Below are positions 3,101 through 7,639 of a DNA stretch of 7,639 bases, piece by piece (position 1 is the first letter of the stretch; every line of letters begins with the position of its first letter). The DNA is from a virus (lineage: Duplodnaviria > Heunggongvirae > Uroviricota > Caudoviricetes), in the IMG/VR virus record IMGVR_UViG_2711768075_000006, one strand, 5' to 3'. Position numbers: made by a program.

Positions 3101-6100
3101 TATTTTATTGCAACTTTTAATCTTTTATAGTGCGAAATAAATGGAGCTGGCATTCATTTCGCACTTTATGTTTTTGTTGGACTTATGTTATTTTGATTGA
3201 ATTCAATTCAGTTAAAAAAAGAAGGTGATTGCTCCATTTATAAATGAATAGTCATCCCCTGTCTTGAATTCTGATGTTACTTTATTAAATGCTAGTGTGA
3301 AGGCTACAGGTGCATACCCAATTGTTGCGCCAACTTGATATTCATCAACAGTTTTGTTTAGCGATACTGTTGTTTGTTTCGTCTGTATTGTTTTTCCTTC
3401 GAGAGTATAGTTGCGATTGACATCTCGTCTTTCCATACCTGCAAAAATCTTGTATTTGAATCCGCTTGTATCGGACATATGCATTAAACCACGGGGAGCC
3501 AGCAGACCAAAGCCATTATCCGAATTGAAGGTTTTATCATTACCAATGGCAATGGTTGCGCCATATGCTACATATTGAAATAAGTTTCCAGTAACAGCAG
3601 AAACTTCAGGGTATAATCCAACATTAGCACCTAAAATATCCATACTTGGTGTCATGGATAGCATCCCTTTTACAGTATAACCGTAGCGATTCTCTATTTG
3701 ATCATCCCATGCATGATATTTTTCTGCCCCAATAATCTCATGAGCTTTATTTTGTACTTTCTGACCGCCTGCGTCGGGGCCAACAACACCTATGTCAGTA
3801 CCTAATCGATAGCGAATCCAGTCATTCGCAAGGGAGTTCCATTCAATACCAGTGTGAGTGTATGCACTAAAAGCTCTGTCTCCAGTTACAGCTGTGTTGT
3901 GTCTTTTATTACTGCCTGATGGAGAGTAAATATCTTGCGCAATATGGAGAGATAATTGGCTCGAGTCTGAGATATCGTGGCTATATCCCAGAAATAAGCC
4001 TTGTGAGTAATCATCTCTGTTTTCATGTTTATTGCCATAAATATCATTAAGTATTGGTTGAAACTTCCCTGCATCATCATTTGCTAATGATAATGCAAGG
4101 CTGTTCGCGATAGCTGAACACGTGGTAAATGACAGAGCAATAAAGACGCCAGCGATGACACTTTTTTTCATATGTTATTGTCTTCCTTTTTTTTGAATGG
4201 TGCGCGTATTTTACATACATGAGTTTGTAATACAAGGTGCGTAATCAATATGATGTTTTATAATTGCGTGAGACAATTGATTTATTCGTTTTTTATTGCG
4301 GTTTTTATTATCTTTTAATGTAACGGTGTTTTTATTAAGTGTGTTTGCGTGGTGTTTTATGTTTTTTATGATTTTTATTTTATTAAATTTAAATGCATTA
4401 GTAATGGCTATTCTATATAGCAATATAAGAACTGTTACAAAAAAAGGGGGGCAATTACAGGTAGTTATGGATGATGAGTGAAACAGATATTGGAGAACCG
4501 GGGAATGAATGATGTCTGAGTCTTATATATCAGAACTCCTTCGCTGTCGCTGGGGGCTCCTGTGCTTATGTCGTTTCCCCGATTCGGTTTTGAACGATTA
4601 CCGAATGTTGAAGAATTATGCCAAAATATAGAAAGGATTTACTGCATGAATACCCAATATTTACAGTATGTTCGTGAGCAACTTATGGCAGCTACTGCTG
4701 ACTTGAACGGAGCAACGAAAGGCCAGCTCGAAGCCTGGCAGGAGCATGCACAATTTGATACTGGTACATACAAACGAAAGAAGCCGCGCATTCTGGATGT
4801 GGTAACTGGCAAGATGATTACGCTGGATAATACGCCGACTTCCGGTAAGCAGTCGTACGCAAAAGGTTCATCCATTGCTTTGGTCAGCCCGGTTGAATTC
4901 TCAACCTCTTCATGGCGCCGCGCGATTTTGTCTCTCGATGAACATCAGAAAGCATGGTTGCTTTGGTGTTACAGCGAAAGCGTTCGATGGGGGCATCAGG
5001 TCACCATAACGCAATGGGCATGGAGCGAGTTTAAAGATTTGTTAAGTAACAGAAAAATTGCAGGTAAGACACTGGATCGCCTGAAGACGTTAATCTGGCT
5101 GGCTGCACAGGATGTGAAGAGCGAACTTGCAGGGCGTGAGGCCTATGAATACCAGACACTGGCATCATTGGTGGGAGTGACAACAAAAAACTGGTCCGAG
5201 ACATTTACTGAACGCTGGGTTGCAATGAAGCACATTTTTCTACAGCTTGATAGTGATGCTTTATTGCTTGTGACGAGAACACGTTCAAAACAAAAGGCAG
5301 CATTTTTACAGAAAAATATTGCAAAACTGGATTAAAAGCCATATACTTCATGCAAATTTGGTATATTGTAAAAAATGTATAAACCCGCTGCCGAGTGGGT
5401 TTTTTTTATGCCCTGAGTTGTACTTGTACGGTAAACATGCTGGCTGCTATGTAATAGAGTTTTTTTAGCCTGTAACCTCTTGACGGCATTGAATTGCTTT
5501 TGTTATGAGTTGTAAGCCAATGTTATCATCTTGTATTGGGGTGGTTATGAAGGATGGTGCGCTGCTCAGGAGTTCTTCACTTTTTATTGCCTACATGGGA
5601 TGCCTTGGATGGGGGAGTGCTTATTTCTATGGATGGGGTACTTCTTTTTACTACGGCTTCCCATGGTGGATTGTAGGTGCAGGTGTTGATGATGTTGCCA
5701 GAAGTTTATTTTTTGCAGTTATTGTCATTGCTATATTTCTTATCGGTTGGGGTATTGGTGTTGTATTCTTTTTCGCAGTGAAAAGAAAACATTCTATGCA
5801 AGAGCTAAATGTATTTCGCCTTTATTTTGCTGTGGAATTATTGTTTGTGCCGGCAATTATTGAGTTTTCTATATTGAGACAGAAGATTCAGGTACCTCTT
5901 TTGCTACTGTCAGCAGCGATTGCGCTGGCGGTTACAATTTCGATAAGATCTTATGGGCGATTTTTATCAGTATCATGCTTCTATGATAAGCCATTTATAA
6001 AAAAACATTTTTTTGAGATTGTGATGATTGCTTTTGTGGCATATTTTTGGCTTTTTTCATTTCTGACAGGATATTACAAACCACAGTTTAAGAAAGAATA

Positions 6101-7639
6101 TGAAATGATTAATTATAATGATGGTTGGTATTATGTTCTTGCTCGTTATGATAATTGTCTGGTTTTGTCTACTTCTTTCAATGCAGGTAGTAAAAGGTTT
6201 GTCATTTATCAATCAGCACAAGATAAGAATCTTCAGGTTGATATTGTAAGGACCAGAATTTAATTGGCTGCATAAATAATATTTTAAGTTGCAAGTTGGC
6301 TATTCGTAGGAATAGAACCTTAGGCATGCTGAATGCGTTTTCTGAACATTGTTTTATAAACTGTGTCTGCTTGCTGTTGTGATCCTGCTTTTAGTGATGG
6401 TGATGATGGATTTCACCAGCAGGATAATGTTGGTACTGACAGATGGCGCTCTGGTCTGCGGCATTGTGGTATTGCTGTGGCCGATGATGAAAGAACAGAA
6501 TGAATAATTCTTGACTTTTTTGTTTACTGTTTATTAAAAAATCAACCGCATGGTGAATCCTCCTTGGAGGGGCTAAATGATCGAGTTTTAAGGGCACGTA
6601 GCGAGTTCTGTTTGATCATTGCAGAACTTAGCGGGAGGCGCCATGCGTACATCACTAGTGTTATTCCTTTTATCATTTTCCTTGTGAGTTCTGGCTGCGC
6701 ATTGCGCAGCCTTTTTTTTATGACCTGCCACTGGCAGATGGTCATCCTGTGATTTGATTCCGCTTCCGGCTTTTTAACACTGTTCCTCTACACGGGAGAA
6801 ATTCGATGTCGATTAAACATTACGATGTTGTCAGGGCGGCGTCGCCGTCAGACCTTGCGGAAAAGCTGACACACAAACTGAAAGAGGGCTGGCAGCCATA
6901 CGGCGGACCGGTTGCCATTACGCCGTACACACTGATGCAGGCGGTGGCTATTGAAGGAGAGCCACAGGTCGGCCCTTCATCTGAGCCGGATTGGTACTAC
7001 GTCATCGTACTGGCCGGGCAGTCCAATGCCATGGCTTACGGTGAAGGGCTTCCGCTGCCGGATTCATACGATGCTCCGGATCCGCGCATTAAACAGCTGG
7101 CGCGCCGCAGTACAGTGACGCCGGGCGGGGCTGCCTGCAGATATAACGATATTATTCCGGCTGACCACTGTCTGCATGATGTGCAGGATATGAGTACGCT
7201 GAATCATCCGAGGGCTGACCTGAGCAAAGGGCAGTACGGCTGTGTCGGTCAGGGTTTACATATTGCCAAAAAACTGCTCCCGTATATCCCGAATAACGCG
7301 GGGATCCTGCTGGTACCATGCTGTCGTGGTGGTTCGGCATTTACCCAGGGCGCGGAGGGGACATTCAGCGAGTCCACGGGGGCCAGTCAGGATTCGGCAC
7401 GCTGGGGGGTGGGCAAGCCGTTATATCAGGATCTGATTTCCCGCACAAAAGCGGCATTGCAGAAAAATCCCAAAAACGTTCTGCTGGCCGTCTGCTGGAT
7501 GCAGGGTGAGTTTGACATGAGCGCCGCCACCCACGCACAGCAACCTGCGCTGTTTACAGCCATGCTGACACAGTTTCGTGCTGACCTCTCCGTGTTTAAC
7601 GCGCAGTGCCATGGTGGCAGTGCTGCAGATGTGCCGTGG

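Follow-up and report, generated by a model that had tools for sequence, protein, structure and literature searches.

The DNA analysed here is a stretch of 7,639 nucleotides (the window) from a tailed virus of the Caudoviricetes, IMG/VR virus record IMGVR_UViG_2711768075_000006. Its open reading frames (ORFs) and Pfam matches identify this 7.6-kb window as the nin-to-late-region segment of a lambdoid phage. The gene under study lies between the gene of a Q-type late antiterminator and an esterase gene, and by sequence comparison its product belongs to the TfpB family of inner-membrane proteins (PF27470). The family is catalogued but functionally uncharacterised, and the gene is already annotated in phage 434 and in RefSeq. 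The gene and its parts are as follows.

5480..5509, + strand: putative sigma-70-type promoter of the gene, read from the sequence, with a -35 element TTGACG (5480-5485), an 18-nt spacer and an extended -10 element TG-T-TATGAG (TATGAG at 5504-5509).
5537..5544, + strand: Shine-Dalgarno-like sequence GGGGTGG before the start codon at 5547, read from the sequence; homologues have GAGG or AGGAG at the same place.
5547..6263, + strand: coding sequence of the TfpB-family inner-membrane protein with its start corrected, as indicated by the ORF, the conserved start, PF27470, PHROG 1521 and the ratio of nonsynonymous to synonymous substitution rates (dN/dS).
5574..5684, + strand: first transmembrane (TM) helix and aromatic/Gly-rich loop, residues 10-46, LFIAYMGCLGWGSAYFYGWGTSFYYGFPWWIVGAG; the most conserved block, with the loop predicted to be periplasmic.
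6096..6251, + strand: C-terminal five-stranded small beta domain, residues 184-235, predicted by AlphaFold2 and probably periplasmic.

An uninterrupted frame of 252 aa is open on the + strand from 5505 to 6263, and an earlier note on this DNA had described it as a gene of 238-252 aa starting at 5505. The ORF is real, but this start is wrong. ATG 5505 falls within the predicted -10 hexamer, and ATG 5520, which is used by PGAP and in the phage 434 record (247 aa), has no equivalent in the relatives. The start conserved among 29 aligned homologues is ATG 5547, and Shine-Dalgarno-like sequences (GAGG, GGAG or GGGG) are found 5' of it in all contexts examined; the protein therefore has 238 aa. Phe, Trp and Tyr account for 50 of the 238 residues (21%), 15 of them in the first 60, and the Tyr/Phe/Trp/Gly-rich N-terminal stretch pointed out earlier (YFYGWGTSFYYGFPWW) is present and constitutes the most conserved part of the TfpB family. 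The GC content of the ORF is 35.8% (29% at third codon positions), compared with 49% in the nin genes and 46% in Q, in agreement with the AT-richness relative to the nin genes that had been claimed.

Searches of Pfam-A, NCBIfam, PADLOC and PDB sequences with the 238-aa protein gave no match, in the case of Pfam-A because model PF27470 is newer than the copy that was searched. PHROG 1521, in the category 'unknown function', was matched with an E-value of 1.7e-154, and three further fragment PHROGs correspond to truncated annotations. In a large protein collection, PF27470 'TfpB' is the precomputed annotation of the 100%-identical cluster representative and of all 108 homologous clusters, which come only from Enterobacterales, and two public records already name enterobacterial copies 'tfpB'. 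The statement of the earlier note that no family was recognised fails for this reason; 'uncharacterised' was a fair description, as the family has no known function, while 'undescribed' was not, given its presence in Pfam and PHROG and its Moraxella tfpB and Salmonella STM1630 relatives. The literature retrieved under the names TfpB, PF27470, TciA and TciB comprised only unrelated uses of the acronyms.

More distant relatives were found by two approaches. An exhaustive profile search of 1.84 billion representatives returned only 71 proteins, which include full-length relatives of the same layout at 13-29% identity. A scan of one genome per species revealed relatives in the Pasteurellaceae (Aggregatibacter, Glaesserella, Actinobacillus, Pasteurella, Avibacterium, Rodentibacter and others), in Conchiformibius (Neisseriaceae), and in Moraxella bovis, M. 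lacunata and M. equi. Association with animals is common to all taxa in which relatives were found. In tblastn, the window protein has 27% identity to the homologue of M. bovis CCUG 2133 (residues 9-236, E 1e-19) and 29% to those of M. lacunata and M. equi. In M. bovis the homologue (L031, 491-1276) is flanked by two segments that code for pilin C-termini in opposite orientations, and that of M. lacunata, truncated to 195 aa from 261 aa, adjoins the gene of a Piv-like IS110-family recombinase. We take the Moraxella homologue to be the classical tfpB ORF of the piv-controlled pilin inversion region, and hence the namesake of PF27470. This ORF was reportedly first described around 1990, in papers of the Marrs laboratory of 1990-91, and to our knowledge no function has ever been established for it.

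Hydropathy analysis of the protein showed four strong TM segments (approximately residues 53-78, 88-110, 115-135 and 155-177), with the aromatic/Gly-rich N-terminal segment as a fifth. A first AlphaFold2 run, with close homologues only, was unusable (pLDDT 59.6). A second run, with an alignment of 74 sequences that included distant subfamilies, reached a pLDDT of 77.5 and a pTM of 0.71, and predicted helices at residues 10-36, 47-78, 89-111, 116-136 and 155-181, followed by strands at 184-190, 193-201, 204-208, 218-222 and 231-235. A multi-pass membrane protein had thus been rightly predicted, but the number of TM helices is five by both methods and not about four; likewise, the 'short beta-like C-terminal tail' is indeed beta but rather a folded domain of about 55 aa with five strands. 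The same architecture, with an aromatic/Gly N-terminal motif, about five TM helices and a C-terminal beta domain, is shared by three subfamilies down to 13% identity.

Among close relatives, conservation per column is 0.88-0.91 for TM1, loop 1 and the juxtamembrane YKPQFKKEY segment. In the TM1/loop-1 block the commonest residue makes up a mean fraction of 0.91 per column, and in the YKPQFKKEY block, which leads into the beta domain, the value is 0.88. Across all 74 sequences only Ala, Tyr, Gly and Pro positions are near-invariant (A25, Y26, G31, G37 and P39), and no invariant acidic, basic, His, Ser or Cys residue was found among them. A family without any invariant polar or charged residue is unlikely to be catalytic, and a structural or binding role is favoured. 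Lys and Arg abound in the N-terminus and in loops 2 and 4 of all three subfamilies, in contrast to loops 1 and 3, which are neutral or acidic. This charge pattern predicts, by the positive-inside rule alone, an N-in/C-out topology, which would place the most conserved parts, namely loop 1 and the juxtamembrane segment with the beta domain, on the periplasmic side of the inner membrane. A fold search of the PDB with the model gave no significant match, only weak and non-significant similarity to SH3-like and MscS beta domains, and a search of BFVD returned nothing at E <= 0.001.

The other features of the window are listed below in their order along the DNA.

Left part of the window: genes for NinB, a Dam-type methylase, NinE/NinF, NinG and a Ser/Thr phosphatase.
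3212..4171, - strand: lpxR, a lipid A deacylase moron (Pfam LpxR, E 6.8e-40).
Right end of the spacer 4172-4645, before Q: the tiny ORF YlcG.
4646..5335, + strand: Q82-type late antiterminator, the upstream neighbour (Pfam Phage_antiter_Q, E 1.4e-91; annotation in phage 434 and RefSeq).
5319..5347, + strand: candidate pR'-like late promoter, TTGCAA-17-TATACT, overlapping the 3' end of Q; from a consensus scan, with its function presumed.
5381..5409, + strand: intrinsic terminator after Q, with a 9-bp stem and a T run, found by scan and annotated as a terminator in phage 434.
6349..6507, + strand: 52-aa membrane protein, DUF3927 or 'TciB-like', the downstream neighbour (PHROG 1470 and annotation).
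6518..6722, + strand: STnc100/PasD-like small RNA (sRNA), ending at the terminator 6693-6721 (Rfam RF02076, 41.4 bits, E 1.7e-6).
Right end of the window, after DUF3927: 5' portion of the SASA/NanS-p esterase gene.

The slot that had been assigned to the gene, between Q with its terminator and nanS-p, is confirmed by the Phage_antiter_Q match, the terminator at 5381-5409 and the SASA/NanS-p esterase. The 951 bases around the ORF have 99.8% identity to phage 434 (OL657226.1), in which the counterpart, CPT_434_68, is annotated as 'putative membrane protein' and lies inside the region of non-homology between 434 and 434B. The same 951 bases occur at 99.8% identity in prophages of 692 of the 5426 complete E. 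coli genomes; RefSeq lists the protein as WP_001302581.1 ('hypothetical protein'), and its carriers include prophages of O157:H7, O26, O103, O111 and O145. An identical, intact 238-aa protein is present on 918 contigs and in about 680 complete genomes. A member of the TfpB family was detected by DNA search in 1197 of the 5426 genomes, and tblastn against 50,697 phage records found a TfpB-like gene in three, phage 434 and two records of phage 2B8. The order LpxR-YlcG-Q-ORF-DUF3927 is kept in O157:H7, with holin and endolysin genes directly after it; in phage 434 the holin, endolysin and spanin genes come after the TfpB-like gene and the esterase.

At about 2997-3086 on the + strand, after the phosphatase gene, the annotation of phage 434 shows a short fragment from the N-terminal part of a lambda-type Q. 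This fragment forms the left boundary of a module that was swapped in and comprises LpxR, YlcG, Q82-type Q, the TfpB-like gene, DUF3927, the sRNA and the esterase. E. coli E2865 and O157:H7 have the same truncated pseudogene, annotated as 'antitermination protein'. The LpxR-to-Q spacer (4172-4645) has 33% GC, with a minimum of 29% in a 300-nt window and a strongly positive GC skew. The 52-aa DUF3927 protein has two TM segments, and the label of PHROG 1470, 'TciB-like, inhibition of cell division or resistance to colicin', is inherited from tciB of phage P1; as this label is on the DUF3927 gene, 'TciB-like' was rejected as a name for the TfpB-like ORF next to it. A copy of the gene with 100% identity was also seen at 1679-2392 of a 3-kb contig (L014) in a metagenome-assembled genome labelled Veillonella sp.; this contig is almost certainly mis-binned E. 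coli prophage DNA.

The promoter of the gene was assessed by comparison with divergent relatives. The same -35 and extended -10 pair is located 67-70 nt 5' of the start codon in an enterotoxigenic E. coli (ETEC) plasmid (L009) and in two prophages (L044 and L053), and a near-identical version is found in an island of uropathogenic E. coli (UPEC; L048), the general form in E. coli contexts being TTGAC(G/T)-17/18-TGnTAT. The proteins encoded in the contexts that share the promoter are 56-68% identical and the synonymous sites of their genes are saturated, so that a promoter pair kept at a fixed distance indicates more than chance. The promoter-like sequence given in the earlier note (TTGACG, 18 bp, TGtTATGAG) is present as described and recurs at a corresponding position in these four other E. 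coli contexts, although the consensus scan does not list it. Comparative evidence argues well for a promoter that belongs to the gene itself, and transcription would start near 5516.

Two further signals precede the gene. The coding sequence begins 138 nt past the terminator at 5381-5409, which is probably tR'-like. A promoter-like site followed by a terminator at the end of Q is the arrangement expected of pR' and tR', so that transcription modified by Q should read into the gene after induction. On the other side of the gene, no intrinsic terminator was found between 6263 and 6692, and the first one, at 6693-6721, lies 430 nt downstream, past DUF3927 and the sRNA. The RF02076 match of the sRNA does not reach the gathering score, which is 47. 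In a 2026 preprint, STnc100 is classed with PasD1 and PasD2, Hfq-binding sRNAs of prophages that lie near Q, LpxR and the sialate esterase gene. Given the STnc100 match and the terminator, the 62-aa 'putative membrane protein' of phage 434 (ORF 6564-6752) is probably an sRNA gene and not a protein.

The position of the gene, directly downstream of the presumed pR'/tR' and upstream of the holin, endolysin and spanin genes, together with its multi-pass membrane product, would suit an accessory of the lysis cassette or another membrane-active late protein, holin-, antiholin- or channel-like. We consider this very improbable. Phage 434 already has a complete set of pinholin, SAR (signal-anchor-release) endolysin and spanins, and DUF3927, the sRNA and the 1.85-kb esterase gene separate the TfpB-like gene from its class II holin and SAR endolysin. 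The protein, with 238 aa, five TM segments and a beta domain, differs from holins, which usually have fewer than 150 aa, one to four TM segments, a charged C-terminus and genetic coupling to an endolysin, and it matched no lysis family in Pfam or PHROG. Moreover, homologues reside on plasmids and chromosomes, the gene has a conserved putative promoter of its own, and it is absent from nearly all sequenced lambdoid phages.

The genomic contexts of the relatives are diverse. Prophage copies immediately follow Q genes, which belong to three different Pfam types. On ETEC plasmids the TfpB-like gene stands next to eltAB in divergent orientation, with estB nearby, and 106 of the 156 plasmid records matched are virulence plasmids of Shigella and enteroinvasive E. 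coli. On the Salmonella chromosome the copy adjoins sseJ; Citrobacter rodentium has it at the same chromosomal site, beside LpxR. Copies in UPEC islands are found beside iroBC and a Bor/Iss gene, and those of Pasteurellaceae are solitary, between housekeeping genes. As judged by ORF size and N-terminal sequence, a cdtABC-like operon lies beside the TfpB-like gene of Glaesserella parasuis (L021, 5955-8017) and HlyD/HlyB-like RTX (repeats-in-toxin) exporter genes beside that of Mesocricetibacter (L019, 5888-9454). Plasmid pWR100 of Shigella flexneri M90T (L059) has an intact family gene at 5001-5717, with 57% identity and flanked by insertion sequences. It is followed at 6269-6673 by the gene of a 134-aa secreted-looking hypothetical protein without counterpart downstream of other family members.

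Neither upstream nor downstream was a conserved neighbour found across the contexts examined. A conserved partner gene was rejected, because DUF3927, a 41-aa ORF in Salmonella, the 134-aa ORF in Shigella and other small ORFs are each specific to a lineage. The gene lpxR occurs near TfpB-like genes in three arrangements. That of the window has lpxR upstream, separated from the TfpB-like gene by YlcG and Q; in the prophage lineage L044-L046 (approximately 6970-7919) it is convergent and downstream; and in C. rodentium (L043, 4863-5823) it is divergent, upstream and split. PmrD is present in L045 and L047. The co-occurrence of LpxR and TfpB could reflect a functional link or a shared hot spot.

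Several of these neighbourhoods might suggest that the protein assists the biogenesis, localisation or release of the adjacent AB5 or cytolethal distending toxin (CDT) type toxins, or of type IV pilin. The gene adjoins eltAB, STb, the cdtABC-like operon, the HlyB/D-like exporter genes and the Moraxella pilin segments, and in prophages it occupies the position equivalent to that of Stx. No toxin or pilin is adjacent, however, in the window or in the majority of the prophage and Pasteurellaceae loci; the neighbours differ from one context to another, and the gene is divergent from eltAB. As the function of the heat-labile toxin, Stx and CDT is, from general knowledge, well described without such a factor, we judge this explanation very improbable.

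For one member of the family, the Salmonella gene STM1630 (SL1560), published evidence exists. It has 717 bp, encodes a full-length member of 238 aa with 46% identity, is annotated as 'putative membrane protein' and lies between sseJ and steB. The published deletion primer of STM1630 encodes NSSMLLAYLGGLGWG, which identifies it as the family member found here, and gene size and position agree. STM1630 is bound by H-NS, as reported by Canals et al. in their supplement (PMC6785131), and is expressed from its own analysed promoter in medium that induces Salmonella pathogenicity island 2 (SPI-2) and in macrophages; in all ST313 isolates two single-nucleotide polymorphisms destroy its -10 element (PMC6785131). 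It was also listed among the genes co-regulated with SPI-2 (Yoon et al., PMC2639726), and signature-tagged mutants were reportedly attenuated in calves and chicks (Morgan et al. 2004, as cited in PMC6785131). The E. coli-type promoter motif was rejected as a universal or Salmonella promoter, since it does not align with the promoter analysed for STM1630. Two published observations were set aside: the hypermotility of the mutant (PMC4219756), which a clean deletion failed to reproduce (PMC4534456), and the essentiality proposed from a low density of transposons (PMC3632133), later ascribed to occlusion by H-NS (PMC6785131).

Values of dN/dS (Nei-Gojobori) were between 0.06 and 0.17 in ten pairs, from alleles that are almost identical to pairs whose synonymous sites are saturated, and by this measure the gene is under purifying selection. 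This bears on the idea that it is a decaying passenger without current function, kept by linkage to the neighbouring cargo. Pseudogenised and frameshifted copies, the fragment PHROGs and the loss of the promoter in ST313 would be expected of a passenger. The low dN/dS even among close alleles, the identical intact protein on 918 contigs and the motifs kept from Enterobacterales to Moraxella make it hardly credible. Loss of the ORF from close relatives, a possibility raised in the earlier note, is seen only in the form of decay in some lineages; decayed copies are minority states and the main allele is intact. One of them is the iroBC-linked copy of UTI89 (L062, 4003-4893), which is frameshifted, truncated at the N-terminus and followed by a tRNA-Arg gene; other strains hold intact copies of this allele. 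In Stx phages, tRNA genes sit between Q and stx. The tRNA-Arg gene after the UTI89 copy recalls this arrangement and suggests that this part of the island derives from the late region of a prophage and has decayed.

Taking these results together, we propose, with moderate confidence, that the gene is a TfpB-family inner-membrane moron, an autonomous AT-rich cassette whose non-enzymatic product benefits the lysogen in the animal host. The identity of the gene, its architecture and the parts of the cassette are much firmer than this role. Family, selection, conservation of the promoter motif and distribution are likewise shown by the data, while the topology, the expression in 434 or EHEC lysogens and the non-enzymatic binding are deductions. 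The cassette would be solitary and horizontally mobile, carry its own sigma-70 promoter and occupy the post-Q cargo slot in phage 434 and in prophages of enterohaemorrhagic E. coli (EHEC). Its location after Q and the terminator implies that in the lysogen its own promoter would drive transcription; after induction it would be the first late gene, read by Q-antiterminated transcription. The gene is probably silenced by H-NS. The product would be a five-TM protein with a cytoplasmic N-terminus, exposing the aromatic/Gly loop and the juxtamembrane segment with the SH3-like beta domain to the periplasm. It would most probably act without enzymatic activity, by binding a lipid or another conserved component of the envelope on the periplasmic side of the inner membrane. 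Its effect would most probably be a lysogenic conversion of the envelope for life in the animal host, as a virulence-accessory or fitness factor. Such a role would group it with the co-travelling LpxR, Bor/Iss, PmrD and NanS-p, and not with lysis or a known anti-phage mechanism. The copies beside virulence loci outside prophages and the induction in macrophages in Salmonella point towards host adaptation.

The expectation of a moron expressed in the lysogen, already formulated from the sequence, is in keeping with the purifying selection, the AT-rich cargo position between Q and the lysis genes and the comparatively conserved putative promoter. Among the features by which morons are recognised, the gene has a distinct composition (35.8% against 46-49% GC) and is present or absent among related phages; a terminator directly downstream is lacking, with nothing in 6263-6692.

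Several observations weigh against this proposal. With regard to the topology, the C-terminal domain is itself net positive, and the mode of binding is a conjecture for which no structural relative was found. With regard to the promoter, a scan of the single sequence for consensus matches did not recover it, promoter-like sites in the window are no more numerous than in shuffled sequences, and the Salmonella promoter that was analysed maps, by the position of the published promoter oligonucleotide, about 200 nt 5' of the start. The phenotypes of STM1630 are weak or contradictory: deletion caused no growth defect, and in 4/74 it increased rather than decreased intramacrophage replication (PMC6785131). 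No literature on the E. coli or phage allele was found. Decay has occurred in some lineages, as in the frameshifted variants, the UTI89 pseudogene, the fragment PHROGs and the truncated M. lacunata gene. Finally, toxin, effector and LpxR genes may be neighbours simply because all of them reside in hot spots of mobile DNA.

Another explanation, suggested in the earlier note beside abortive-infection and toxin-like roles, is superinfection exclusion (Sie), or more generally a single-gene barrier to phages or bacteriocins, by which the periplasmic parts would block phage DNA or a toxin at the inner membrane. It would suit a membrane-protein moron that stands alone in a cargo hot spot of prophages and has a putative promoter of its own, and it draws on the predicted periplasmic position of the conserved parts, where known Sie proteins, from general knowledge, block entry. 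The solitary copies of Pasteurellaceae at variable chromosomal sites are also typical of defence or immunity genes, and the Moraxella copy lies inside a type IV pilin cassette, pili being generally known as phage receptors. No positive evidence for such a role emerged, however: PADLOC-DB v2 gave no hits at E up to 0.1, and none of the characterised holin, Sie or Imm proteins that the earlier note had named as possible matches was hit by sequence or by fold, nor was any characterised Abi protein. Only three of the 50,697 phage records carry the gene, the very low dN/dS and the near-invariant periplasmic motifs are unlike the usual interface of an arms race, and the Salmonella copy is regulated with intracellular virulence genes. 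We therefore keep exclusion as a tentative and rather unlikely alternative to the envelope moron proposed above.

A broader conjecture, which we also consider rather unlikely, is that TfpB represents an unrecognised class of non-enzymatic single-gene inner-membrane 'gatekeepers', whose invariant periplasmic aromatic loop and SH3-like domain would clamp a conserved envelope machine, thereby excluding phage DNA or toxins or retuning a surface organelle. The carriers would be phages, virulence plasmids and islands of mucosal Gram-negative bacteria, and, if this were true, phage 434 in E. coli K-12 would be a model with which to assign a function to Moraxella tfpB and STM1630.

For the envelope moron as well, the distribution gives the gene its interest. 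It extends from EHEC O157:H7 and the main non-O157 serogroups to ETEC and Shigella plasmids, the SPI-2-co-regulated set of Salmonella, Pasteurellaceae and Moraxella pathogens. The present analysis ties the genes of phage 434 and EHEC, those of ETEC and Shigella plasmids, STM1630 and Moraxella tfpB into one family, and adds a corrected start codon, a predicted topology and a conserved putative promoter. Phage 434 is a classical and genetically tractable phage, and whatever function were found in K-12(434) would also apply to many pathogens.

In comparison with known systems, the small inner-membrane proteins that prophages express in the lysogen, such as T4 Imm and Sp, P22 SieA, lambda RexB and HK97 gp15, offer a functional analogy only. 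The TfpB protein is larger than the Sie proteins, has a folded beta domain predicted to be periplasmic, is widespread outside phages and has no relationship to them by sequence, profile or fold. The MscS-family channels (MscS, YnaI and MSL10), recurrent among the weak fold hits, likewise combine a bundle of TM helices with a small beta domain directly after it; a significant structural match to the MscS TM3 pore helix and cytoplasmic beta domain was not obtained.

The late-region morons of lambdoid phages (Stx, Bor/Iss, Lom, LpxR and NanS-p) occupy the same type of slot and share with the window gene a lower GC content and, presumably, an own promoter and dispensability for growth. The TfpB protein differs from them in being an inner-membrane protein and not a toxin, outer-membrane protein or esterase, and its gene in having no directly following terminator. 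STM1630 resembles the window gene as AT-rich and horizontally acquired DNA; it is bound by H-NS, and a promoter of its own has been analysed. It differs in that it is chromosomal and not part of a prophage, in the promoter, which is about 200 nt upstream and not of the E. coli-type motif, and in its published expression under SPI-2-inducing and intramacrophage conditions. Moraxella tfpB lies between pilin segments and is flipped by Piv, whereas the window gene is a post-Q phage cargo with its own putative promoter and with neither pilin nor invertase nearby. Nevertheless, the two proteins are homologous over approximately their full length (27-29% identity), belong to the same length class, and share the AY.YGWG...YG.PWW motif, the TM layout and the YY(I/V)L beta domain.

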